Position numbers and translations under genes: made by a program
Assembly: GCA_002269645.1 (NCBI GenBank)
Contig: NIVC01000108.1
Span: forward strand, 310,001 to 374,000
Origin: Macrostomum lignano
Lineage: Eukaryota
Direction: 5' to 3'
Length of the DNA: 64,000 nucleotides
The notes under the pieces: generated by a model
The model's database searches: none
What the model saw: only the letters and a program-made list of their open reading frames with translations
What the model was told of the DNA's origin: nothing
Part shown: positions 41,768 through 61,183 of the stretch, one piece after another
How the letters are laid out: each line of letters opens with the position of its first letter
How positions within the stretch are numbered: the first letter of the stretch is position 1

Positions 41768-44700
41768 ATGAATGAGAGCAAGCATAGGCCAAACGGAGAA
41801 TATGGTTACCATTACCATGCTCCAACAAGTAGCAGAACGAATTTTCGAAAAGAGCAGAACGCTTCTCTGACAAAATCAACAGAATCTTTTAATAGAGCTT
41901 CTGGGCAAAATCAACGCCAAAACACACGCATAAATAATGCTGGAAACAGAACAATCCAAGGCTCAGATGAATCTGTGACTGGTATGGCATCTGGTCAAGG
42001 CCAAGATTGGTCAAACTCTTCAAAGAAAGGACCATGGAATAAGCAATATTCACCAAATATTGATACAATTGGCTTAAACCCTACAATGGATACAAAGAAA
42101 GAAAAGGTAATCTTTAAAAAATTAAAGTGAAACTTTCTTTTTATTTCTTTAAAATTTTTGTTTTATGTTTTCTTTAAAGTTTAAGCAAAGCACAATTCTG
42201 TTTTGTCTCCCTTTTGGCCTTGGTTATAAATATTTGTTTTAATCAATAGTTTTTTAGTTAATTATATTAAAAATATATATCTTTCTTATTAGGCAGTGCT
42301 TATCCCCACGGTACCGTAGGAATAATTTCTGTCTTATTCCAACGGTACCGTGCGAATAATTTTCTGTTTATCCGCACGGCACACTGAGGAGATAGCTGCC
42401 CTATCTTCTACATATGCCGTGTGGGAAGTTTAGTACATACGATTTGAGTGCAGTATAACAACTTTGTTGAATTATTGTTGAATAAGTATACAGAAGGGTA
42501 TCAGTAAAGCAGAATAACACGCATTTACACATGCATATACTAGTCTAGAACTGATTCGAGTTTATACATCATCAAGATCAACAGCTTCTTAGTATCCTCA
42601 GTTCAAATTCCCTTTCAATAAGCTATAAACTATTCACGCACAGCATATGTAGCAGATAAAAACCGATAGGGCAGCTAGTAAAGCAGAGGGAATAAAACAG
42701 AGGACGTGTAGGGCAGCTATCTCGTCAGTGTGCCGTGCGGATAAGCAGAAAATTGTTCGCACGGTACCGTTGGAATAAGACAGAAATTATTCCTACGGTA
42801 CCGTGCGGATAAGCACTGCCTTCTTATTAATAGTATTATCCCATAGGAAGGACTATAACCTATACCAAATTATATTCTAATAGCATAATATATACTTTGT
42901 AATCGCCTTTCCTTGGCTTATTGATATAAGCTCTCTAAGTGGCCCTTTTTTATATATATATTTTATCATATTATATATACAATCTTTAATTTGGGTATAC
43001 AAATTAAGTTTCAACAAAAAAAGAACATAGTTGGCTCTATTGGAATTCTTTTGTTTTGCTTCTCCCTTTCCTATTGCCTTTTCTGTTTATTTTATTTTTC
43101 TTTCCTTCATTTTCCCTTGACTCATTTCTTCATTGTTTATTGTTTCTGATTAAGGGAAGAGGCAATTTTATAACCTAATTTTGGCTAATAGTCCTTTCAA
43201 CTAGGCTTAGCTAATCTCAATTGTTCAGCCAGGTGTTTTGCATATATGACCCTTGTATAGAGCCTTTGCTTTTTAAATAATAAATTGACTACACCTTTTC
43301 AATTTTAGCCTAGCAGCAGCAACAAGGAGATGCAGTCTGTGGCCAAATATATAGTTAAAAAGGTGAGAATTGTTTTAATTAGCAGAAATATATAGGCATT
43401 TTAGCATCAAATATCTTCAGTTAACTGAATTTATAATAACAATGTCTTCAACAGCGAGACCAGCATAAAGAAGCCAGTCCCAGTGGCCAGCTGGCTCAGC
43501 AATACAAGGACGAATCACCAGGTCCTGAACCTGCTGCCACTGCTGGTGGAGAGGCAGAGTGGCCCAGCCTGCAGCAACCACAGCGGCTGTCCCGCCCAGC
43601 TCGCAGTGTCGCCACCGCCTCAGCACCAGTCTCCACTGCATCACCAACTCGCCTCGCCCACCTGCAAGAGCTACCACTGCCGCCGGCTCCACTGACGCTG
43701 GTGACACCAAGTGGCAAATTTGTTGATGAGGCCCAGCGCCAGGAGTTCCAGGAATACCTGGACCCGACAAACACCAACTTCAGTGTTGTTGGCGTGCTGG
43801 GGCTGCAGGTAGCTAATTTAGAATATTTTCGAAATTTATATCTAGCATAGAAATAGAAGCACTGATACTCCTGATCTGCTGTAAAGTGTACAGCTTATAC
43901 TTGTACAGTACTTGCAGGCTAGAGGTCAGGTAAGAATAGGATCAATTGTTTTTGATCAATGGGATCAATGGATTTTAGCGATCACGAGATCGGGAATGTA
44001 ATCCGAATCAAGGGATTGGGATGGGATCCCGGGATTGGGATGGGATCCCGGGATTGGGATGGGATCCAGGGATTGGTATGGGATTGGGATCCTGGGATGG
44101 GGATGGGATCGGGATGGAATGGGATCTCGGGATCAGGATGGAATTGGGATCCCGGGATGGGGATGTGATCGGGATCCCGGGATCGGGATGGAATGGTATC
44201 CTGGGATCGGGATGGAATGGGATCCTGGGATCGGGATGGAATGGGATCCTGGGATCGGGATGGAATGGGATCTCGGGATCAGGATGGAATTGGGATCCCG
44301 GGATGGGGATGTGATCGGGATCCCGGGATCGGGATGGAATGGGATCCTGGGATCGGGATGGAATGGGATCCTGGGATCGGGATGGAATGGGATCCTGGGA
44401 TCGGGATGGAATGGGATCCTGGGATTGGGATGGAATGGGATCCCGTCTTTCTCTAGTGTTAGTACTGTGGGGAGTCGCTCCCTTGTTTGTATCTTACCGC
44501 CTCTTAGAGCTGCCGAGCTGCAACGGGGAGAACTGGACTCCTTGAGCTCAGCTTTATTGAACAATGGCACTTCTGTTGCTATGCAAGTGTTGAAGGTCCC
44601 AAAAGTCCGCCAGGCTCACCGTAATCATGACCGCGTGTTGCTTATAGACATCTGCAAATTGCATGTCCCTCAACCCCTTCCCCTGACAGTCCTCGGGCAA

Positions 44701-45839
44701 GTCCAGCCTGCTCAACTCGCTGCTGCTCGGCCGCCTGCCAGGCCAGGAGGAGCCACCGGCCGGCCGGGCCTTCGCCGTTGAAAGCCTAGACAACCTGCTG
44801 GGCAACGCGCACCGCACCAGGGGCGTGCAGCTGCAGACAACGCCTGAGCGGGCCTTCCTGCTCGACTGCGAGGCCCTGCTGGCTCTGTCCAGCGCCGAGG
44901 CGCTCATCCAGGCCGCCGCTAGCGAACGGCGTGGCGGCGGCAACAGCGGTGCCGGCTCCACCGGCGCCAACGCCGGCCAATCCGACTTCATCACAGTTGA
45001 GACCGGCGCCACAATGCACGGCATCCAACTCAGCGCCTTCCTCATGTCCGCCTGCCACCTCCTGCTGGTGGTGGCTGACGGCTGGCCGGACCCGGACCTG
45101 CTCCGCCTGCTGCTCGCCGCCGACATGCTGCGGCCTGCCGTGCTGGACGACACCGGCTTTCAGCCCCGTGTGATCTTTGTGCTGAACCGGACACCGGCCG
45201 ACGCCGGGCCCGCGCCCGCCCGCCTGCGCGAACTGCTGGCCGGCCTGTTTGAGGGGGCCGCCTTCCGGCTCGATGCCGGCAGCGTCTTCTGCCTGCCGCT
45301 GCTGGACGAAGACTGTCCGGGTGAGGGCTGTGACTGTCCGGGTGATGACTGACTGACTGGTGAGGGCTGTGACTGTCCGGGTGAGGGCTGTGACTGTCCA
45401 GATGAGGGCTGTGACTGTCCGGGTGAGGGCTGTGATTTTCCGGTTGGGCCGGTTTGTTGCAGCACAGTGAAGATAAATTTTCTTTCTCAACATGCTCGCC
45501 GATCTCATGACTCATTCTGCCAGACTCGGCGGCGGCCATCGAGTACACCGAGGAGCTGGAGCGGCTGCGCAAGCTGATTCTCACGTCTCCCAGGCACCAC
45601 ATGCTGCGCCAGGACCTGTTCAACGAGAAAGTCTGGTAGGAGTTGGCTGATCGATATTCAAATATTTATTTAATATCGCGTTTTATGCAATCCCTTTACT
45701 GTTAGTAGAGTCAGCAGGGCTTTGATTTGCTTTCTTATCTTGCCTTCCCCTTCTCTGCAGGCTGGACTTTGCCGCCGAAGTGTGGGAGAACATTGAGAAG
45801 TCCGTCATGCTAGCCGAGTACCACAGGCTGATCGGGTGA
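41768..45839 (+). CDS. SMG9: SMG9 nonsense-mediated decay factor (6 exons, ~522 aa)
   Basis: Exons 41768-42106, 43309-43362, 43455-43808, 44690-45320, 45524-45635 and 45761-45839, phase-consistent. P-loop VVGVLGLQ|SSGKS; HGIQLSAFLMSACHLLLVV; C-terminus FNEKVWLDFAAEVWENIEKSVMLAEYHRLIG*. The first two exons are less certain. Confidence 0.88.
42292..42820. mobile_element. Mutator-like non-autonomous element (long TIR) in SMG9 intron 1
   Basis: ~110-bp near-perfect TIRs starting GGCAGTGCTTATCC; 9-bp TSD TTCTTATTA at 42283-42291 and 42821-42829. Confidence 0.9.
43995..44445. repeat. GGGAT-based ~24-bp minisatellite in SMG9 intron 3
   Basis: Direct reading (GGGATCCTGGGATCGGGATGGAAT). Confidence 0.92.
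45311..45445. repeat. 21-bp tandem repeat of the SMG9 exon 4/intron 4 junction
   Basis: Unit GACTGTCCGG|GTGAGGGCTGT, about 6 copies. Confidence 0.85.
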
Positions 45840-50400: not shown

Positions 50401-50803
50401 GCAAAGACTTCCTAAGAGAGCCCATGGCATTCTCCGGGCCCAGAAGTCCGTGGGTGAGCCGGTTTGCGCAGAGAAAAGTGCATCTTAGACCGGCATGTCG
50501 CCTTCCTGAGCTGCGGCACGGCAGGAAGTGGCGGGGGGGGGCGGGGAGCTGAAGACAGGGAGTGGGTCAAGTAGAGAGGAAATTATCCTAAGGGAGTTAT
50601 CATTAAGGGAATTTTATTGGCAGGCTTTCATTGGGGTTTGTAGTCGGGACTCGTTTATCATACCGTAACTTTTCGGGGGTAACGATTAGAGGGTATTTTC
50701 GTCAGGGCTTATCACGGGTGTTCTACAATATTTCTCAGGAGGCATTTTATGAGACTTTATCCTGAGATGGACATTTATGTGGGTATTTCGTCAGGAGTAT
50801 TTA

Positions 50804-51769
50804 TGTTGTGACCTGCGTCACAGTGCTCCCTTGGTGCAAGTGCACTTTGATAGTTGTTGACTTTGGTAGTTGATTATTGTTACCCCCCCCCCCCGGCTCA
50901 AGCCAGTCTGGAGCTATGAGCCCTTTGGCTGAGCCTCTGCTCTCTTTCTCTCTCTCTCTCGCCTTGGCTGTTTAGCCCTTTGGCTAGCCGTGCTGATTGG
51001 CTGGGCCTCTGCTCTCTCTCCCTCTCCCTGGCCGTGCGCGCTTTCACCCTCCCCTCGCCGCAGCCAATCAGCTGTCAATCAGCTCCATTGTTTAAGCCCT
51101 TTCTCCCCCCCCTTGTTTGCGCCCCTGCCCCTTTTTACTCGTTATTTAAGGCGACGCTCAGACCCCGCCCCTTTTCTCACCGTGCCTGCGCCCATTTGCG
51201 CCCACCGCGATAAATAAACGAACGTGACCAGCGATCAGCCGTAAAGACGGTCTCTTACTGCGAAGACTCAATTTATTGCAATCGATCGGCCTTCCCGTGT
51301 ATGAGTGCTATAATCGACCCGGCCCGGTAAGCTGTCGAGACAATTGCCTGTGTTCCTCGGGGTCGCTCTCCTGATCTCTCTCTCTCTCACTCTCTCCTCA
51401 GTCTGACTCACCAGGCTGTCGAGTGGCCGACCGCCCGCAGCCCTCTCTCTCTTCCTTGACTCACCAGGCTGTCGAGTGGCCGCCCGCCCACAGCCCTCTC
51501 TCTTTTCCTTGATTCACCAGGCTGTCGAGTGGCCGACCGCCCGCAGCCCTCTCTCTCTTCCTTGACTCACCAGGCTGTCGAGTGGCCGCCTGCCCACAGC
51601 CGCCCCTCCCCTCTCTCTCGACTTCTCAACCTTGACCTCCCCCCGAAGTGTCCGTACGCCTCGGGGTCGCCGATCGAGCTCGTAAGCCCTGGGCAGTCTA
51701 GTACCCGAACCCCGACACCGCTACCCGTCGCCCAACCCGGCCGTGCCAGCGAGGAAGGGGGATACAACA
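50804..51769 (+). repeat. 5' LTR (966 bp)
   Basis: TG...CA ends; four copies of an internal 53-bp repeat (51405, 51458, 51511, 51564). Confidence 0.96.
51238..51280 (+). other. Spliced-leader-like sequence within the 5' LTR
   Basis: GCCGTAAAGACGGTCTCTTACTGCGAAGACTCAATTTATTGCA matches, from memory, the Macrostomum lignano SL exon lacking only its terminal TG; TAAATAAA at 51211-51218. Confidence 0.8.
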
Positions 51770-51770
51770 T

Positions 51771-51788
51771 TGGCGCCCGAACAGGGAC
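51771..51788 (+). promoter_or_regulatory. Primer-binding site complementary to tRNA-Lys(UUU)
   Basis: TGGCGCCCGAACAGGGAC, 1 nt after the LTR; this is the classic 18-nt tRNA-Lys3 PBS sequence. Confidence 0.92.
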
Positions 51789-51812
51789 TGCTCAGTTTGC
51801 TTGTGAGCTGTC

Positions 51813-52793
51813 ATGGCGAATGTGGACGAACTGATTCGGCTGCTAGCCGAGCGTCTGCGAGCGGATGGACCAGCCCAGCCACCGAGACTCCCGAAGCCCG
51901 TGAAGTACACGTCAAGCATGAATTTTCGACTCTGGCTGCGCTCTTTCAACGCTTATTGCGACTCCGCCGAGATTGACGAGGAGCATCGCCGCGAGCACTT
52001 GATGAGCATGCTGGATCTCGCTACGGCGTACGCTGCGGTCGATAATCTGAACCTGCCGGGACCCGACGATCCTGTGGATCCGCTGGACTACGAGGGATTC
52101 ACCGCCCGGTTGGAGGCTCGCTTCTCCCGGTACCGGACAGAGCAGGACAGCAAGGTCGAGCTAAAAACCCGAGATCAGAAGGATGGCGAGTCGTTGGAGG
52201 CCTACGCAGATGCTCTCCTTGAACTGGTGCGCTGTGCCTACCCGGCGGCAACTGCCGAGCTGCAGGACGACCTCGCGAAGGATCGCTTCATGCAAGGTGT
52301 GAGACTCTCCGACCTCCAGCGAGAGAAGCTCTACCTGCAGCAGCCCGAAGGTCTGGTGGCAGCACAACGCGCGGTGAGGCAGCTCGAGGCGGCGTCCAAG
52401 GCGGCGAAGGGACCGAGATCGGCTGGAGCAACTGGCAGCGGCCACCGAGGAGTCTTCGTGGTGAGCGGCGCGGCGGAATCTGTGCCTCGGGAGGATGGAG
52501 CCTACTCCCAAGAAAAGGACAAAGAGCTCGAGGAGTTGAAGAAACTGGTGAGGCAGCTTCAAGGCAAAGTGGTTCAGCTCGAGTCGCTGAGAGCGGAACC
52601 GCATAGCAGCGCCGCAGCTCGACCGACCGACTCCGACGAAGGCGACCATCAGAAGCCTCGACGAACGGGAGGAATTCGCTGCTTCTTCTGCAACAAGCCA
52701 GGGCACATCGCGACTAACTGCCCAACCCGTCAGCAACAGGGAAACGGCAAGGGGAACTTCCGCAGGGGCGAGGGAGTTCCGCCGAGACAGTAG
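51813..52793 (+). CDS. gag: Gag (326 aa)
   Basis: Retrotransposon capsid-like region (LKTRDQKDGESLEAYADALLELVRCAYP) and CCHC knuckle CFFCNKPGHIATNC. Confidence 0.93.
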   Translation: MANVDELIRLLAERLRADGPAQPPRLPKPVKYTSSMNFRLWLRSFNAYCDSAEIDEEHRREHLMSMLDLATAYAAVDNLNLPGPDDPVDPLDYEGFTARLEARFSRYRTEQDSKVELKTRDQKDGESLEAYADALLELVRCAYPAATAELQDDLAKDRFMQGVRLSDLQREKLYLQQPEGLVAAQRAVRQLEAASKAAKGPRSAGATGSGHRGVFVVSGAAESVPREDGAYSQEKDKELEELKKLVRQLQGKVVQLESLRAEPHSSAAARPTDSDEGDHQKPRRTGGIRCFFCNKPGHIATNCPTRQQQGNGKGNFRRGEGVPPRQ

Positions 52794-52842
52794 AGGCCCC
52801 AACCCGAGACGAAGATGCAGCCCCGGAGCGACGTGCAGCAGG

Positions 52843-55800
52843 ATGCCGGCGGACTGCTCAAGAGATAGAGATCAACCTGCAACAGCTTTTAATCCCGTGT
52901 CAATCTACGTGTCGGTAAAAATTGGCGAGATTGAGTTGCCGTGTCTGTTGGATTCGGGCTCGGTCATGTCGCTGGTGAACGAGAGGACCTGGCGGCAGTT
53001 GAGCAAGTCGGTTCGAGTTGAACTCAGCCCTTCGGAAACCCACCTGATCTCAGCGAACGGAACTCCCATGAATGTGTTAGGATGCGCGTCGCTTCCCCTA
53101 CAGTTCGGATCAGAAACTTTACAGACGCCAATTGCGGTGGTCCAAGGGGTCGGCTACGAACTGTTGCTAGGCACCGACTTCTTACGCCGCCACCGGTGCC
53201 AAATCGATTTCGCCGGAGGAGTTTTCCGCGTGAACGGTTCACGTGTGCCAATCCGAGAGACCAAGCACAAACCAGTCGTCTGCCGGTTGTACCTGAACGA
53301 AAACTTGATCATTCCGGCCAATCACGAACGGACCGTCTCAGCCAGGATTCGGAGAACAGCGACACAGAATTCCGGAGTGCTTGGCGTCGCCGAGCCAGAC
53401 GAAAAACTGAAGAGCGATGAGAGACCAATGCTAGCCAGGAGCGTCTGCCTCATCCAGCAGGGCAACACCCTACCAGTTCACTTCGCGAATGTCACGGACT
53501 CCGAGCTGCGGCTGCGGAAGGGAGCTGTCATCGGCTGGTTTCGACCATCAGATCCGGCTCAAGAGGTTCTGGTAGCCAGCATCGAAGAGCAAGCGTCGGT
53601 TTTACGACCCAGCTGCGATCCATGGGACCCAGAGGCGGCACTGAACCAGCACGGCTCCAAGCAGCTCACGGGGGCAGACAAAGCGAGCTTCCTAAGATTG
53701 GTGAATCGATACGCAGATGTTTTCGCAGAGAGTACAGCGCGCCTCGGGACGACGGACATCGTGCAGCATGAAATTGAGACCACCGGAACAGCCGTAAAAC
53801 AGCCTCCGCGACGGCTACCGCCACATTGGCGCGGCGAAGTCGACCGACAAATCGACGAGCTTTTGGCAACGAAGATGATTGAACCGACCCAATCGCCGTG
53901 GAGTTCGCCAGTGGTCTGTGTCCGTAAGAAGAATGGGGAACTGCGACTGTGTGTCGACTACAGGGAGTTGAATCAACGAACTGTCAAGGACGCCATAGCA
54001 ATCCCGCGTGTCGATGACGCACTTGAAGCGCTCGGAGGTGCGGCTGTATTTTCGACGCTCGACCTGTGCTCCGGCTATTGGCAAGTTAAGGTCAAAAGGG
54101 AGGATCAAGAAAAGACTGCTTTTGTCATTCCGCATCGGGGGCAATTCGCGTTCAAGGTGCTGCCCTTCGGATTGACCAATGCGCCGGCGACATTCACAAG
54201 GTTGATGAATATGGTACTACACGACCTTCTGTGGAAAATGGCGCTCGTCTACATCGACGATATCATCATTTGGTCCCGAACTGTCAGCGAGCATCTAACG
54301 AATCTCGAGGCGGTATTCCAGCGCCTGCGCGCAGCCAACTTGAGGCTAAAGCCATCTAAGTGCAGATTCCTGGCCGATGAGGTCAAATTCCTTGGCCACG
54401 TCGTGTCAAAGGACGGAATCGATGTCGACCCGGAGAAGATCAAGGAAGTCCGTGACTGGAGCATTCCAAGAAATGCAAAAGACCTTCAGTCGTTCCTGGG
54501 TCTGGCTGGTTACTACCGAAACTTCATACCAGAATTCTCGATAGTCGCTGCACCACTTTTTGATCTGACAAAGAAAGACAAGCCGTTCAGTTGGAGAGAG
54601 GAACACGATGAGGCCTTCAAAAAGCTGAAAGAAGAATTGACCGGTTGCCGCGTGATGGCCTACCCGAACTTCGACCCCACGGCTGGTGAGTTCATCTTGG
54701 ATACCGATGGAAGTACCCGACAGGGTCTCGGAGCAGTCTTGTCGCAGGTACAAGAAGACGGGTCAGAGCGGGTTATTGCGTACGGGAGTCGGCGTCTGCA
54801 AGGGGCCGAATTCAACTATTGCACGACACGAATCGAGCTCCTGGCGCTGGTGACATTCGCAGAGAGGTTCCGGTACTATCTACTTGGCCGGAGGTTCCGG
54901 GTGCGCACCGACCACGCAAGTCTGCAGTGGCTCCGAAGTATGAGGCAGCCGGAAGGCCAGTTGGCTCGGTGGATGGAGAGGTTGGCGCCATTCGACTTCG
55001 CAGTGGAGCATCGGCCAGGGGCGCGTCATCAGAATGCGGACGCGCTGTCACGCAAGCCGCCGCGACGACATCCCGAAATGGATAACTGCCCGTCGTGCCG
55101 GACTGATGACCTCCCCGGGGTCAGGGTAACGACGCTGCTCGGGTTGCTCAGCCGAGATGAGCTGGCAGCAGCACAAGCTGTGGACAACGACATCGCTCCA
55201 GTTTACCAGTCGATGCACGCCGGCCGAGCAAACGAAGAGCCACCTGGGGGTGCGTCACCAACGACCCGAGCCATCTGGGCACAAAAGCCTCGGCTGGAAA
55301 TTGTGGACAACACCCTCGTCATCAAGGATCTGGGACATCACCCACCGCGGGCTGTTCTCCCGAAGAAATTGATCCCCGACGCTCTGCAGACGCTGCACTC
55401 TGGACCAGGAGGTGGACACTTCGGCGTAGCAAAGACTCTGGAGAAAGTCAGGAACCGATTCTGGAGACCCGGCTTGAAGCGAGAGGTCGAGGAGTTTGTG
55501 CGAAGGTGTGACGACTGTAACCGGAGCAAGCCCGGGATGCGGCGGAAGGCCCCATTGGAGCCGATTCCCAGCAGCCATGTGTTTGAAAGAGTGATGGTGG
55601 ATTTGATTGGACCACTGCCAACCAGCGTCCGAGGCAACAAATACATACTGACGATGCAGGACGCGTTCAGTAAGTGGCCAGTGGCAGTACCGGTGCCAGA
55701 TCAGACGGCCAGCACCTGTGCAAGGGCAATGCTCGAGGAGTGGGTCTGTCACTACGGAGCCCCAGGAACAATCCACTCGGATCAGGGAGCCAATTTCGAG

Positions 55801-56715
55801 TCGCAATTGATCGGCCAGCTGTGCGAAAGTCTGAATATCCGAAAGACGCGTACGACCGCCTATCACCCCTCTGGAAACGGCCAAGTGGAAAGCTTCAATA
55901 AGACGCTGACTGCAGTGATCCGGGCGCACCTGGTGAAGGAGCCGGATCAGAGGCGGTGGGACGAATTCGTTGCCCCGGCGCTCATGGCGTATCGCTCCAG
56001 TGTGCACCGCGGCACCGGCTACTCACCCTTCTTCCTTCTGCATGGTCGCGAGATGTCTCTGCCAGTTGACTTGGGAGTGGCGCGCCCACTGGACATCGAA
56101 CCGTACTGCGAGGAAGTCCAGAACCTGCGGGAGACGCTCGTGGAAGCCCATCGGGTGGTGCGTGAGAGAATAACGTCATATCAACGAGTGCAGAAAGACT
56201 GGTACGACCGGAAGGTGAAGGGTCGAGAATTCGTGGCTGGCGACGAGGTGTTTGTCTACAACCCCGTGTTGAAGGCCGGTGCCAAAGCGAAGCTCCACTC
56301 ACCCTGGACCGGACCTGCCGTAGTTCTCGAGAAGCTGTCGGAGACGCGCTATAGGATTCGACAGGAAGGTCGACGGAAGCCGATCAAGGTGGTGCACTTT
56401 AACAACCTCCTGCCTCGGTACCGGAAGTACCCGGTCGACGGCACCGGTGGCCCTCGGCGTCCTGCACCAAGGAGGTACCACCCAGGTCCTGCTCAAGAGA
56501 CGGAATCCGTCAGGGAGGACTCGCAGGAATCGGACGATGAGGATGAGGAGCGATGGTGGCGACATTCCGGGCGGGTTCGAGAGGAGGGAGAACCAATGGA
56601 TGTGCAGCAGCCAGGAGTGCAGCCGCAGCCGGAAGCGCCAGTTGAAGTCATCGAAGGTCGACCCCAGAGGGATCGAAGGGTTCCGCAGCGTTATGGAACG
56701 CCCGTTTATTATTAA
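52843..56715 (+). CDS. pol: Pol polyprotein: protease, RT, RNase H, integrase
   Basis: LLDSGS protease; RLCVDYRELN, LPFGLTNAPATF and YIDD for RT; RNase H LDTDGS..EL..DHASL; integrase HHCC (H..GGH..CDDC), DLIGP/SDQG/VESFNK and a GPY/F-like SPWTGP. Confidence 0.96.
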   Translation: MPADCSRDRDQPATAFNPVSIYVSVKIGEIELPCLLDSGSVMSLVNERTWRQLSKSVRVELSPSETHLISANGTPMNVLGCASLPLQFGSETLQTPIAVVQGVGYELLLGTDFLRRHRCQIDFAGGVFRVNGSRVPIRETKHKPVVCRLYLNENLIIPANHERTVSARIRRTATQNSGVLGVAEPDEKLKSDERPMLARSVCLIQQGNTLPVHFANVTDSELRLRKGAVIGWFRPSDPAQEVLVASIEEQASVLRPSCDPWDPEAALNQHGSKQLTGADKASFLRLVNRYADVFAESTARLGTTDIVQHEIETTGTAVKQPPRRLPPHWRGEVDRQIDELLATKMIEPTQSPWSSPVVCVRKKNGELRLCVDYRELNQRTVKDAIAIPRVDDALEALGGAAVFSTLDLCSGYWQVKVKREDQEKTAFVIPHRGQFAFKVLPFGLTNAPATFTRLMNMVLHDLLWKMALVYIDDIIIWSRTVSEHLTNLEAVFQRLRAANLRLKPSKCRFLADEVKFLGHVVSKDGIDVDPEKIKEVRDWSIPRNAKDLQSFLGLAGYYRNFIPEFSIVAAPLFDLTKKDKPFSWREEHDEAFKKLKEELTGCRVMAYPNFDPTAGEFILDTDGSTRQGLGAVLSQVQEDGSERVIAYGSRRLQGAEFNYCTTRIELLALVTFAERFRYYLLGRRFRVRTDHASLQWLRSMRQPEGQLARWMERLAPFDFAVEHRPGARHQNADALSRKPPRRHPEMDNCPSCRTDDLPGVRVTTLLGLLSRDELAAAQAVDNDIAPVYQSMHAGRANEEPPGGASPTTRAIWAQKPRLEIVDNTLVIKDLGHHPPRAVLPKKLIPDALQTLHSGPGGGHFGVAKTLEKVRNRFWRPGLKREVEEFVRRCDDCNRSKPGMRRKAPLEPIPSSHVFERVMVDLIGPLPTSVRGNKYILTMQDAFSKWPVAVPVPDQTASTCARAMLEEWVCHYGAPGTIHSDQGANFESQLIGQLCESLNIRKTRTTAYHPSGNGQVESFNKTLTAVIRAHLVKEPDQRRWDEFVAPALMAYRSSVHRGTGYSPFFLLHGREMSLPVDLGVARPLDIEPYCEEVQNLRETLVEAHRVVRERITSYQRVQKDWYDRKVKGREFVAGDEVFVYNPVLKAGAKAKLHSPWTGPAVVLEKLSETRYRIRQEGRRKPIKVVHFNNLLPRYRKYPVDGTGGPRRPAPRRYHPGPAQETESVREDSQESDDEDEERWWRHSGRVREEGEPMDVQQPGVQPQPEAPVEVIEGRPQRDRRVPQRYGTPVYY

Positions 56716-56742
56716 GAGCGGACGTGAGTGCGTGCGCAATGT

Positions 56743-56975
56743 CGCGTCATCTCCTGCGTCATAAATAATTGGTTCGAAGCATCATCCGCGTCATCACCTG
56801 CGTCATCAACATTTGGTTCGAAGCATCATCCGCGTCATCACCTGCGTCATCAACATTTGGTTCGAAGCATCATCCGCGTCATCACCTGCGTCATCAACAT
56901 TTGGTTCGAAGCATCATCCGCGTCATCACCTGCGTCATCAACATTTGGTTCGAAGCATCGTCTGCGTCATCACCC
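56743..56975. repeat. 44-bp tandem repeat between pol and ORF3
   Basis: CGCGTCATCACCTGCGTCATCAACATTTGGTTCGAAGCATCATC, about 5 copies. Confidence 0.92.
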
Positions 56976-57179
56976 GCGTTATTGAAAACTGGGCTCGTGT
57001 TATTGCCTCTGCTTCACAAACAAAAATATATATTTCCCCTCTTAAGGCCCGTCAGGGAGGTCCCACCTGCCCAACCCTGCCATCAGGGATGAAGGATCGG
57101 CGCCCCAAAGAGGCTCGAAGGAACCATTGCCCTGCTCTCAAAAGTGAGTCGTGGTTGTTGCAGGCACTGCTTTCCGGGC

Positions 57180-58061
57180 ATGGACCTCTACGCCGAGTTT
57201 GGTGTCAGCCCCTTCGCGACGGAGGAGGAGCTGCGACGTGCGTACCGCCGTGAGAGCCTGCGACGGCACCCCGACAAGTGTGGACCCGGTGGAACGGAGA
57301 ATTTCCAGAGGCTGCAGCATGCGAGTGCGGTCCTGCTGTGTCCGTTTCGACGAGCGCTGTACGACCGGTTCGGGCAGGATGCCGTTAGCAACCCGCTCGA
57401 GTGCGCCCGGTATTTTGTCCCGCCGGATGGGATGTGCGTCCCGGAGGAGTTTGTCGTAACGATTGAAGACGAAACAGAAGAGTCAGACGAGGACAGGGAG
57501 TCGGAAGGAAGCGAGCGTGGTGGTTGCGGCGGCGAGGAGACTGCTCAGAGCTGCTGTGAAATCACGCAGTCAGAGGAAGAAGAGCTCTTGAATGAATTCG
57601 ACGGCGAAACTTCGATGTCAGAAGACGAACCGGAGCTCGTCATCGACCAACGGGAGTCGCCAGCGTGGCTGATGAGGAGCGAGCCGAGTACCGAGGTGGA
57701 ATACACCTGGAGCGGGGAGGCAACGCAGCGAAGAGCTCGAATCCGGTCGGAGCTTCGGCACGCTTTGTTGTCGGGGAGTCCAGCTGCGATGTTCCGGCTT
57801 TTGACTGAAATGGTGGGACTGTGCGGCAGCGAGCGGCTGGATCATCGACGCGAAATCGCCGAGCTTTTGGCTCAGACTGTCAAGTTCATTCTCCGTGACA
57901 TCAGCGCCAAGTGTCGGGGTCATGCTCGGCGTGTCTGGCGGCGGCCTGCCTTCAAGCGAAGCACTCGGTTCGTCATGAGTGTTGCGATCCCTCAGTTTGA
58001 ACTAATCGACGGAGGACGCGTGTTGGGGTTGTTGCGCCGGGCGGCGGAGGTGGCGGTCTAG
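57180..58061 (+). CDS. ORF3: J-domain (DnaJ/Hsp40-type) protein, 293 aa, encoded inside the retrotransposon
   Basis: DLYAEFGVSPFATEEELRRAYRRESLRRHPDK...ENFQRLQHASAVLLCPFRRALYDRFG is a complete J-domain with HPD at 57267-57275, followed by an acidic linker and a predicted helical C-terminal domain; intact ORF. Confidence 0.88.
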   Translation: MDLYAEFGVSPFATEEELRRAYRRESLRRHPDKCGPGGTENFQRLQHASAVLLCPFRRALYDRFGQDAVSNPLECARYFVPPDGMCVPEEFVVTIEDETEESDEDRESEGSERGGCGGEETAQSCCEITQSEEEELLNEFDGETSMSEDEPELVIDQRESPAWLMRSEPSTEVEYTWSGEATQRRARIRSELRHALLSGSPAAMFRLLTEMVGLCGSERLDHRREIAELLAQTVKFILRDISAKCRGHARRVWRRPAFKRSTRFVMSVAIPQFELIDGGRVLGLLRRAAEVAV

Positions 58062-58189
58062 GGGGTTCTGGGGCAGGATGCCAGGGCGGGCAAGAGACCT
58101 TCACTCCTTCATTTCATCCCATCTCTCCTCTGATCGTCGTTGTGATCCCTCTGTTTGGCACTGGGAGCGGCCCCGAAGGAAGGGCGGGG

Positions 58190-58400
58190 AACACTCTCGG
58201 CCATGCCCGGCGCTCTCGGTCGTTGCCCGGCATTCTCGGCCGCTGCCCGGCATTCTCGGCCGCTGTCCGGCACTCTCGGCCATGCCCGGCGTTCTCGGTC
58301 GCTGCCCGGCATTCTCGGCCGCTGCCCGGCATTCTCGGCCGTGCCCGGTGTTCTCGGCCTGTCCGACATCCTCGGCCCCTGTCCTGCGCTCTCGGCCGCT
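58190..58400. repeat. ~20-bp GC-rich repeat (GCTGCCCGGCATTCTCGGCC) in the element's 3' UTR
   Basis: Direct reading. Confidence 0.85.
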
Positions 58401-58490
58401 GCCTGACACTCTTGGTCTCTTTCATTCAGTTTCATTTCATTACATTTTTTTTCATTTTCATTCAGTCAAAGCGCGTCGTTTTCTTTTTTT

Positions 58491-58501
58491 AGGGGGGAGG
58501 G
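58491..58501 (+). promoter_or_regulatory. Polypurine tract
   Basis: AGGGGGGAGGG preceded by a T-run, directly abutting the 3' LTR. Confidence 0.9.
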
Positions 58502-59358
58502 TGTTGTGACCTGTGTCACAGTGCTCCCTTGGTGCAAGTGCACTTTGATAGTTGTTGACTTTGGTAGTTGATTATTGTTACCCCCCCCCCGGCTCAAGCC
58601 AGTCTGGAGCTATGAGCCCTTTGGCTGAGCCTCTGCTCTCTTTCTCTCTCTCGCCTTGGCTGTTTAGCCCTTTGGCTAGCCGTGCTGATTGGCTGGGCCT
58701 CTGCTCTCTCTCCCTCTCCCTGGCCGTGCGCGCTTTCACCCTCCCCTCGCCGCAGCCAATCAGCTGTCAATCAGCTCCATTGTTTAAGCCCTTTCTCCCC
58801 CCCCCTTGTTTGCGCCCCTGCCCCTTTTTACTCGTTATTTAAGGCGACGCTCAGACCCCGCCCCTTTTCTCACCGTGCCTGCGCCCATTTGCGCCCACCG
58901 CGATAAATAAACGAACGTGACCAGCGATCAGCCGTAAAGACGGTCTCTTACTGCGAAGACTCAATTTATTGCAATCGATCGGCCTTCCCGTGTATGAGTG
59001 CTATAATCGACCCGGCCCGGTAAGCTGTCGAGACAATTGCCTGTGTTCCTCGGGGTCGCTCTCCTGATCTCTCTCTCTCTCTCACTCTCTCCTCAGTCTG
59101 ACTCACCAGGCTGTCGAGTGGCCGACCGCCCGCAGCCCTCTCTCTCTTCCTTGACTCACCAGGCTGTCGAGTGGCCGCCTGCCCACAGCCGCCCCTCCCC
59201 TCTCTCTCGACTTCTCAACCTTGACCTCCCCCCGAAGTGTCCGTACGCCTCGGGGTCGCCGATCGAGCTCGTAAGCCCTGGGCAGTCTAGTACCCGAACC
59301 CCGACACCGCTACCCGTCGCCCAACCCGGCCGTGCCAGCGAGGAAGGGGGATACAACA
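58502..59358 (+). repeat. 3' LTR (857 bp)
   Basis: Near-identical to the 5' LTR but with two rather than four 53-bp internal repeats; SL-like copy at 58931-58973. Confidence 0.96.
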
Positions 59359-59662
59359 TTTACTCAAGATTATTTCTTCGGAGGTATTTCCTCGGGGTAT
59401 TTCCTCAGGGGTATTTCCTCGGGGTATTTCTTCAGGGGCATTTCCTCGGGAGTATTTCTTCGGTGGTATTTCCTCTTGAGTATTTCCTCAGAGGTATTTC
59501 TTCAGGGGTATTTCGTCAGGGGTATTTCGTCAGGGGTATATCCTAAGGGTTATTTCCTTAGGAGTATTTCCTAAAGGTAATCAGTCGGTGGTGGGGGTGA
59601 ACGGAAGGTCAGCTGCTCAGCCTTCGCCTCCAACCGTCTCGGAATTGCAGCGCACTCGCGAC

Positions 59663-60340
59663 ATGGTGGACCGCGAGCTGCTAAACGTTGTGTGGGTGAC
59701 GGCCTCTGTGGTGGCGGGCACGGGCACCACCCTGATCGCCCTGGTGCTCATCTGCAAGGTCACTCAGCGCTGCCGGCTACGCTGCCGTCGTCGAAAAATT
59801 AAAGGCAGCGGCGGTCGCGGCCTCCCAGACAATGCAGACACAGCCTGTTGCTGCTGCTGCTGCGGCAGCGGCGGCGGAGCTGACAGCTTCGGCCGATCGT
59901 CCACCGCTGTCTACGACGCCGCCCGGACTGGCAATAAGCCGGCGATGGACACCTTCGACGACTTTCTGCAGCGGTCCTTCAGCCCTGGCGGCCACGCGGA
60001 GGCCCTGGCCCAGTCCAGTCAACAGCAGCTGCCGCCGCCGCAGCAGCCGCAAGCGCAGCCGAGACCGCCGCCGCCGCCGCAGCCACAGCCGCTGCCGCAG
60101 CCGCAGATTGCGGCAGGCGCGTCGTCCAATGCGGCCGCTGCGGCGGCGGCGGCTGCAGCGGCGGCGGCAGCAGCCTCAGCAAATCGGCAGTCAGGAACCC
60201 CGACAGCGCCGAAACCGCCCCTCGTTGGTGCGGGCTCCATGCCGCATCAGCAGCCGCAATACCAGCAGCGGACTTCGCCAATGATTGGCTCGCCGCGTCA
60301 GACCCCGCCGCAGCTGCAGCTGCAATCGCAGAGTCTGCAT

Positions 60341-60378
<38 letters not shown>

Positions 60379-60412
60379 TCAACAGCAACAGCAGTACCTT
60401 CAACAACAACAA

Positions 60413-60457
<45 letters not shown>

Positions 60458-61183
60458 TACCTGCAGCAGTACCCGTCAAAGGATTCTCAGGCGCTCCTCA
60501 ACCAGATTGTCGGCGCCCAGCAGCCACAGCTGACGCATCCCGGCCTGGCGCCCAACCGCATTTCCCGACAGCCGACGCAGCCACCGCCGCAGCAGCAGCA
60601 GCAGCTGCTCGGCCATCACCGCTCCATGGCGATGCTGCACGGACCATCGCAGCCTCCGCAGCAGCAGCCGCAGCCCCCGACTTCGATGTCACCACTGCGT
60701 GGCCGCATGCCAGTCGGCCTGGCGAGGCACCAGTCGGACGCCGCCGTGGCTGCCTACGCGTACGCGGTGCGGGAGGCCGCAGCGGCCGCCGCCGCAGTCA
60801 GCGTCGACCTGCAGTCCATGCCGCCGTCGGCCTACGAGCAGCACCAGCACCTGCTGCAGCGGCACCACCGGCCCATGGCCTTCGAGATCTGCGAGAGCGA
60901 CTGCGACCGGTACAGCGACCTCAGTCTGGGCGGTGGCGGCTCCGGCGGCGGCAACCACCTGGACGGTGTCGGGAGCGCCGTCGAGAAGGCAGCGAAACCG
61001 CCCACATCAGTCGCCGTCGCCTTCAACTACGACACGTACGACACCGAGTGGCCGCTGAACAGCTACGTGCGACCTGGCGCAGTCGCCGGCTTCCACGAAG
61101 GCGTTCAGGCCCGCTGCCACCCCGCCAGGAGGGGCCACATCCTCTTCGGCCGGGGCACCGGCCGCTTCACCGGCAACTTGTGA
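59663..61183 (+). CDS. Single-pass membrane protein (or large exon) with a poly-Q/poly-A/Pro-rich cytoplasmic tail
   Basis: Long GC3-rich ORF; TM-like VVWVTASVVAGTGTTLIALVLIC followed by a basic stop-transfer segment (RCRLRCRRRK); phase-0 acceptor TTGCAG at 59645-59650 just upstream; family unknown. Confidence 0.65.

Follow-up and report, generated by a model that had tools for sequence, protein, structure and literature searches.

A J-domain gene in the env position of a clade of Ty3/Gypsy retrotransposons of Macrostomum lignano

Env-bearing Gypsy elements such as Drosophila gypsy and Osvaldo express their third open reading frame (ORF3) from a spliced subgenomic mRNA. In a different setting, the J-domains of T antigens remodel the Rb-E2F complex. 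To our knowledge, transposon-encoded proteins that counter host defences are few, and the best known of them come from plants (VANC). The third frame of a Gypsy-type element need not be env: the bdelloid rotifer elements Juno and Vesta are reported to have non-env ORF3s that code for a DEDDy exonuclease or a GDSL esterase (PMC5408684). Here, we describe an ORF3 that codes for a J-domain protein.

The window, which is the whole 64,000-nt stretch of Macrostomum lignano DNA that was analyzed, contains a complete young Ty3/Gypsy element at positions 50804-59358. It was assigned to Ty3/Gypsy on the basis of its LTR pair, primer-binding site (PBS), polypurine tract (PPT), and target-site duplication (TSD), and of a gag gene followed by protease, reverse transcriptase (RT), RNase H, and integrase in that order. 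Comparison of the two LTRs (966 versus 857 nt) gave 853 matches and 1 mismatch, plus repeat-number indels. We labeled the ORF3 lineages A to H, and this element represents family A. Its features are as follows.

50800-50803 (no strand): left TSD, 4 bp; other family A copies have different 4-bp TSDs
50804-51769 (plus strand): 5' LTR, 966 nt, TG...CA, from the LTR comparison
51248-51280 (plus strand): spliced-leader (SL)-like 33-mer in the 5' LTR, matching published SL bases 1-33 of 35, with the terminal ATG not preserved
51301-51326 (plus strand): predicted coding part of the upstream exon of an ORF3 mRNA, inferred from an ATG 26 nt before the donor, phase 2
51327-51332 (plus strand): predicted splice donor (GTAAG type) in the LTR, from a frame-compatibility scan
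51771-51788 (plus strand): PBS, next to the 5' LTR
51813-52793 (plus strand): gag (Retrotrans_gag-like, zf-CCHC), from domain matches
52591-56715 (plus strand): pol frame, 1374 codons, overlapping the gag end; protease, RT, RNase H, and integrase from domain matches
56743-56979 (no strand): 44-nt tandem array, 5.4 copies, in the pol-ORF3 gap, from repeat analysis
57158-57163 (plus strand): predicted splice acceptor, 16 nt ahead of the ORF3 ATG; sister family D has an acceptor at the corresponding position
57180-58061 (plus strand): ORF3, 293 aa when read from its own ATG and 307 aa with the predicted splice, from translation and Pfam
57180-57371 (plus strand): J-domain, aa 1-64, with the HPD at 57267-57275, from Pfam, AlphaFold2, and PDB matches
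57372-57491 (plus strand): folded J-domain extension, aa 65-104, conserved across ORF3 lineages, from AlphaFold2
57453-57470 (plus strand): SUMO-interacting-motif (SIM)-like stretch, aa 92-97, a weak candidate
57492-57713 (plus strand): acidic, mostly disordered linker, aa 105-178; site of the chromodomain insertion in family G
57714-58055 (plus strand): basic five-helix C-terminal domain (CTD), aa 179-292, found only in ORF3 homologues
58195-58403 (no strand): 20-nt tandem array in the ORF3-PPT gap, from repeat analysis
58491-58501 (plus strand): PPT, adjoining the 3' LTR
58502-59358 (plus strand): 3' LTR, 857 nt, 106 nt shorter in its own 53-nt repeat array
59359-59362 (no strand): right TSD, 4 bp, flanking the 3' LTR

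We take the PBS at 51771-51788 to be of the tRNA-Lys type. Pfam gave no match to a chromodomain at the integrase end of the pol of this element, which therefore does not have chromovirus architecture. Each unit of the 44-nt array at 56743-56979 holds two TGCGTCA motifs, which we assume to be AP-1/CRE-like, and an AT-rich stretch follows about 150 nt before ORF3; in this family only, the array could act as an internal enhancer or promoter. As for the host sequence around the element, an exon with a GTPase-like P-loop start is located upstream, at 44554-45352, and resembles SMG8/SMG9-type proteins. About 300 nt past the 3' LTR, a host frame (59660-61183) codes for a hydrophobic N-terminal segment and long polyQ/polyA tracts. 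The insertion point is a 14-nt tandem array just upstream of this frame.

The initial annotation of this DNA had reported an intact 293-aa frame with a complete J-domain between the integrase and the PPT, inside the TSD-bounded unit. Our analysis confirmed both statements. The translation of 57180-58061 gives 293 aa and a stop. The frame follows the pol stop (56715), precedes the PPT (58491-58501), and is enclosed by the two LTRs (50804-51769 and 58502-59358) and their 4-bp TSD. Pfam DnaJ (PF00226) matched aa 2-62 with an E value of 1.2e-12 and 48.2 bits, compared to a cut-off of 27.8. The HPD is at aa 30-32, and HPDK is invariant in 10 of the 10 rows of the ORF3 alignment. With a score over the cut-off, the four-helix J fold, and the HPD, ORF3 belongs to the J-domain family; the best PDB sequence matches of the domain were DNAJB1, DNAJB2, DNAJB6, and DnaJ (E about 1e-23). 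ORF3 thus has the features of a working J-domain, from which stimulation of Hsp70 is predicted. Judging from J-protein biochemistry, the HPD-bearing ORF3 proteins are likely to be working Hsp70 adaptors. The view that ORF3 is not Env also held: the maximum 19-residue hydropathy was 1.09 in this copy, with no transmembrane or signal-like stretch, and 0.7 to 1.45 in the 10 ORF3 rows, and no env Pfam match was found.

An AlphaFold2 model built on the 10-row alignment recovered the acidic linker and the basic helical C-terminal domain that had been described from the sequence. The J-domain and its extension occupy aa 1-104 (block pLDDT of 89 to 96 up to aa 90 and of 72 beyond), followed by the disordered acidic linker (aa 105-172) and the five-helix CTD (aa 179-292). 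Modeled alone, the CTD reached a pLDDT of 91.9 and a pTM of 0.83. It contains 23 K/R versus 11 D/E residues. The structure search that had been suggested for this domain did not place it in a known family; neither sequence nor structure gave a convincing match, the B12-binding cap four-helix bundle being among the candidates compared. The CTD is a putative new small helical domain family. A profile of it, searched against 1.84 billion representative proteins, gave 9 matches: 2 M. lignano models, 4 Logan proteins, 2 JGI proteins, and 1 HEAT-repeat false positive. The outside (Logan and JGI) proteins are 33 to 76% identical to lineages B, C, and G, and one has the same chromodomain as family G. 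In the genome and profile searches, the CTD was found nowhere beyond these elements and ORF3-like proteins.

Searching the genome with ORF3 gave 153 matches, of which 14 (this copy counted) were full length and stop free at 99 to 100% identity and many were at 30 to 60%; because the assembly is redundant, these counts set a ceiling on the number of loci. Of the 8 family A copies examined, 6 are flanked by matching 4-bp TSDs at different sites, and these copies are therefore separate insertions. Among 30 non-A loci, 23 had their own pol directly upstream of the ORF3 match (13 of these inside an LTR pair), 3 were host DNAJ genes, and 4 had no pol of their own in range. Many ORF3 copies are broken; others, down to 30% identity, have kept an intact frame throughout the clade. 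Families A, C, and G, all with ORF3, are among the clade's youngest and have some of its highest copy numbers.

We built an RT plus RNase H tree of 32 rows, taken from the ORF3 matches and from 20 unfamiliar loci among the best 150 RT matches. All ORF3 families fell into one clade (UFBoot 97) with two subclades, A/D/B/F/G/C (UFBoot 100) and E/H together with one ORF3-less family (UFBoot 99). The four outgroup loci of this tree had no ORF3. A J-domain phylogeny had been proposed as a way to find the host donor. In our tree of 40 rows, the transposon J-domains formed a single clade (UFBoot 92), and no host donor stood out: the nearest host branch, which we take to be DNAJC21-like, had a UFBoot of only 73. 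On these trees, ORF3 traces to a single origin in the clade. A J-domain was also seen at the N terminus of a multicopy intronless frame of about 1450 codons (L071:726-5072, L072:4745-9091, and L073:705-4826), which has no other Pfam match and is unrelated to ORF3 outside the J-domain. A further observation concerns families C and B, in which tandem arrays between gag and protease (L033:2190-2870 and L086:2623-3303) leave the pol frame open and add up to about 230 low-complexity residues.

Selection on ORF3 was measured with pairwise codon models in 16 pairs, five of which were unsaturated. Omega was 0.215 for B/B' (dS 0.14, p 7e-7), 0.156 for C/C2 (dS 1.4), and 0.35 for the E pair (p 0.006). 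Two family F pairs had omega values of 0.32 and 0.56, which were not significant (p 0.057 and 0.2). In the eleven saturated pairs (dS above 4), omega was below 0.08, a value informative only in its direction. When the J-domain, the extension, the linker or chromodomain, and the CTD were analyzed separately, all 20 domain-by-pair tests, of which many were saturated, gave an omega of <1. In B/B', pol had an omega of 0.29 at the same dS, so the constraint on ORF3 there matches that on pol. The 13 copies compared within family A have 6 synonymous variants and the same number of nonsynonymous ones, one of which changes the HPD; these were too few to test, and comparison of this family was possible only with D, which is saturated. 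These codon models show purifying selection on ORF3 across the clade, and ORF3 is almost certainly a selected accessory gene. The many broken copies, the loss of ORF3 from some lineages, and the scarcity of family A variants would be in agreement with ORF3 being a fragment of a host DNAJ gene that was transduced recently and evolves neutrally. We give this explanation next to no probability: the multicopy test that had been proposed for a single neutral copy gave an omega of 0.16 to 0.35 in three unsaturated pairs, frames are intact at 30% identity, and the CTD is restricted to these elements and ORF3-like proteins. The selection and distribution data together refute neutral transduction.

In all lineages, a YAG or AG is present at or shortly before the start of the J-domain. 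In family A, the acceptor ending at 57163 is matched by a GTAAG donor at 51327, which is preceded at 26 nt by an open ATG (phase 2). It is the only one to fit among 30 GT sites of the 3' portion of the family A LTR, and the spacing is kept in 6 of 7 copies. Family D has the same arrangement, as pieced together from an LTR and an acceptor of different copies. In the D and E copies, ORF3 itself lacks an ATG; in E and E2, the final A of the donor exon would be joined to a TG following the acceptor, so that a splice would create the start codon. Donors are present in B, C, F, and G, where an ATG belonging to ORF3 coincides with the acceptor or follows it by 1 nt, and no fitting donor was found in family H. 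The frame-compatible donors and acceptors of A, D, E, and E2 predict an env-style subgenomic ORF3 mRNA, and the family A protein is probably 14 residues longer (307 aa), with its start in the LTR exon. RNA contigs of four SL-rich runs cover the family A element through ORF3. No ORF3 splice junction was listed in the contigs of four such runs each for A and G, and contigs of this kind drop rare forms. The family G ORF3 is an annotated protein of the M. lignano annotation, which is described as built from RNA-seq (PMC5730564).

The core of ORF3 consists of the J-domain, the acidic linker, and the basic five-helix domain, and additional modules are swappable. In family G, a chromodomain is inserted in the linker (Pfam, 47.7 bits), with Swi6 and HP1 as its best PDB matches. 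In the PDB alignment, it has only two of the three cage aromatics, at what we take to be the cage positions. Families E and H have a TatD-like fold appended (35.3 and 22.3 bits), which by inspection, and at positions that we assume to be catalytic, lacks most of the catalytic residues. A SIM-like motif occurs in 8 of 12 ORF3 lineages and is absent from both chromodomain lineages. Its pattern was chosen after the sequences had been seen, and its shuffle p values are 0.04 to 0.10 per lineage; it was matched by only 2 of 6 held-out outside homologues, and in family A it sits in an AlphaFold helix. We treat this motif as a lead only. The intact 571-aa ORF3 of family H (L075:7260-8972, L133, L134, and L135) joins the CTD to a J-like domain lacking the HPD and to a degenerate TatD fold. 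This family is young and abundant, with 16 rows of one RT score, and 2 of the retrieved loci are intact. Recruitment of Hsp70 is therefore not the sole selected function, because family H keeps ORF3 but has lost the HPD.

As a working proposal, held at somewhat less than even confidence, we suggest that the ORF3 product is a nuclear Hsp70 adaptor that loosens silencing complexes at chromatin. ORF3 would likely be made from its own spliced mRNA; the HPD would recruit host Hsp70, and the rest of the protein would set the target. The basic helical domain, with the HP1-like chromodomain (family G) or the acidic SIM-like linker (most others), would guide the protein to H3K9-methylated or SUMO-rich chromatin, where Hsp70 would remodel bound repressors and loosen the complexes that silence the element. 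The remodeling would resemble that of Rb-E2F by T-antigen J-domains. Such a diffusible product could also serve copies without the gene. Precedents are VANC (PMC6719617) and SILENZIO, a host J-protein with a part in transposon silencing (PMC10651127). Three points led us to rank silencing chromatin first: an HP1-type reader is the only module whose specificity is known, the CTD has a basic charge, and movement of the cassette between backbones is independent of gag-pol. As read from its sequence, the chromodomain of the sister lineage points to chromatin rather than to Gag particles; it fits integration targeting equally well. A more ambitious version, which we find rather doubtful as a whole, sees ORF3 as a modular chaperone platform against silencing. 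Its interchangeable readers (HP1-type chromodomain, SUMO-binding linker, and pseudo-nuclease fold) would steer Hsp70 to heterochromatin and pull silencing complexes off the elements, and the gene would be expressed from a spliced env-style mRNA and swapped like viral accessory genes.

J-proteins are established to dismantle oligomeric complexes, as auxilin does with clathrin. ORF3 might accordingly serve replication or integration, by directing Hsp70 to the Gag particles or the intasome of the same element for assembly, uncoating, or release after strand transfer, while its chromodomain would steer integration in trans as the integrase chromodomains of chromoviruses do in cis (10.64898/2026.05.21.726589). 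The pol of this element has no chromodomain match, so a separate reader could supply the targeting; a spliced mRNA of the env type would also be expressed together with gag-pol. We nevertheless judge this role unlikely on account of how ORF3 is exchanged and lost. The mosaic L065 is 90 to 95% identical to C through gag-pol and 66 to 73% identical over ORF3. In L067 and L078, gag-pol is 88 to 95% identical to G, most of ORF3 is 60 to 64% identical, and identity then returns to 93 to 94%; L069 shows the same switch against B at the 3' end. The switch back to backbone identity lies within the CTD in L067, L078, and L069. Overall, ORF3 cassettes that are 60 to 73% identical reside on gag-pol backbones that are 90 to 95% identical, which is hard to reconcile with a tight, required Gag or integrase partner. 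This pattern is the one expected of a factor that faces host targets and not the element's own proteins. A required partner is equally hard to reconcile with ORF3-less families that have young LTR pairs. The D-lineage element L124 (LTRs 99.5% identical) has no ORF3, and neither have L127, L129, and L131 (98.7 to 99.6%). L136 (6488-7030) and L137, whose LTRs are >99% identical, have lost the J-domain and CTD but retain the final 180 codons of the TatD-like tail. Four retrieved loci were truncated or interrupted and were uninformative on the absence of ORF3. ORF3 is dispensable in cis in several young families, and the ORF3-less families either do without it or use it in trans.

The chromatin modules that would allow ORF3 to loosen silencing would serve silencing just as well. 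ORF3 could help to silence or poison its own or related elements or could act as a decoy, given the dead TatD fold and the HPD-less family H, which is abundant and keeps ORF3 with degenerate J and TatD domains. SILENZIO, a host J-protein that acts in transposon silencing in the Arabidopsis MBD5/6 complex, offers a model in the account given in PMC10651127, and broad anti-silencing has been argued to be costly to transposons (PMC6719617). Against this, ORF3 is carried by some of the youngest and most numerous families of the clade (A, C, and G), and we consider such self-restraint improbable.

The SL-like 33-mer is present in both LTRs (51248-51280 and 58941-58973), about 35 nt past the LTR AATAAA and shortly before the predicted ORF3 start exon. 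It matches the first 33 of the 35 bases of the published M. lignano SL (PMC8629364). The initial annotation had linked ORF3 to this SL mimic, a link that did not survive comparison of the families: the 33-mer was present in 7 of the 8 family A copies, compared with none of 19 loci from the remaining ORF3 families. Since it is confined to family A, the SL-like sequence is not coupled to ORF3. The 33-mer draws a huge depth of SL contigs in RNA runs and would mislead counts of family A expression.

Other M. lignano LTR families are reported to be heat induced through heat-shock elements (HSEs; PMC12801592), and J-domains are found in many DNA viruses. ORF3 might thus act on general host physiology, by titrating Hsp70 and so tuning the heat-shock response or by a T-antigen-like release of cell-cycle brakes in stem cells. 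Conversely, a canonical HSE was found in 0 of 12 LTRs of the ORF3 clade and once in an outgroup LTR (L138:731-1070, in a locus oriented along pol), and the reported heat induction is therefore not extended to this clade by the HSE route. The outgroup element may be the heat-induced Gmr1/Osvaldo family of PMC12801592. Nothing was found in support of the cell-cycle targeting that had been suggested at the outset, and inspection of the ORF3 translation showed no LxCxE motif. We hold such a role in host physiology to be highly improbable. Our tentative preference stays with an adaptor that loosens silencing complexes.

The clade-wide J-domain ORF3 is a real gene under selection and appears to be unpublished: the literature searched, in which coverage of subscription journals was thin, contained no description of a J-domain ORF in an LTR retrotransposon. 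The word DnaJ has 0 occurrences in the main text of PMC5408684; DnaJ, Hsp40, J-domain, and ORF have 0 occurrences in the main text of PMC12801592, in whose supplements DnaJ appears only in host-gene annotation rows of one table. If the proposed role is correct, no Hsp70 adaptor encoded by a retrotransposon would have been known before ORF3, which would also be one of the rare proteins that suppress transposon silencing in an animal. The clade has retained this putative co-chaperone over deep divergence, fitted it with chromatin and nucleic-acid-type modules, and passed it from backbone to backbone; it offers a direct handle on transposon counter-defence in an animal amenable to RNAi and transgenesis. 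Any of the targets considered (silencing, integration, or particle handling) would represent a new use of the env slot. Many of the M. lignano gene models named "J domain-containing" are transposon cargo.

Compared with the systems introduced above, ORF3 shares with env-bearing Gypsy elements (Drosophila gypsy and Osvaldo) its place as a third ORF after the integrase, splice signals (here predicted) at the corresponding points, with the donor in the 5' leader and the acceptor where the ORF begins, a 4-bp TSD, and a PBS presumably of the tRNA-Lys type; in family E, the start codon is predicted to be made by the splice. Unlike them, it codes for no signal peptide, transmembrane segment, or fusion protein, and its splice is a predicted one. 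Viral J-proteins, among them the polyomavirus T antigens as we know them, likewise combine a parasite-encoded HPD J-domain with a dedicated targeting region in a class C-like layout, and the database matches for the J-domain included DnaJ proteins of giant-virus, phage, and baculovirus origin. ORF3 differs in residing on a retrotransposon, in having no homology to them outside the J-domain, and in lacking both LxCxE and a helicase. Host class A/B J-proteins share only the J-domain with ORF3, in which Pfam detected no G/F region, zinc finger, or DnaJ_C and which is thus not a class A/B Hsp40. In Juno and Vesta, as here, a host-like domain was captured in the env slot of invertebrate Gypsy-type elements, is present in some families and missing in others, and is shared as a module (PMC5408684). 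Unlike those, the M. lignano cargo is an Hsp70 co-chaperone by its domains, combined with a helical domain unique to it and with exchangeable chromodomain or TatD modules, and purifying selection on it is shown. VANC of VANDAL (PMC6719617) and the DAM-LTR/EpiLTR elements and chromoviruses (10.64898/2026.05.21.726589) resemble ORF3 as accessory transposon proteins with chromatin-facing modules and a proposed role in counter-silencing or targeting. Whereas these systems, to which ORF3 has no sequence relation, are described as using demethylation, methyltransferases, or an integrase-fused chromodomain, the ORF3 chromodomain is carried on a separate, putative chaperone adaptor.
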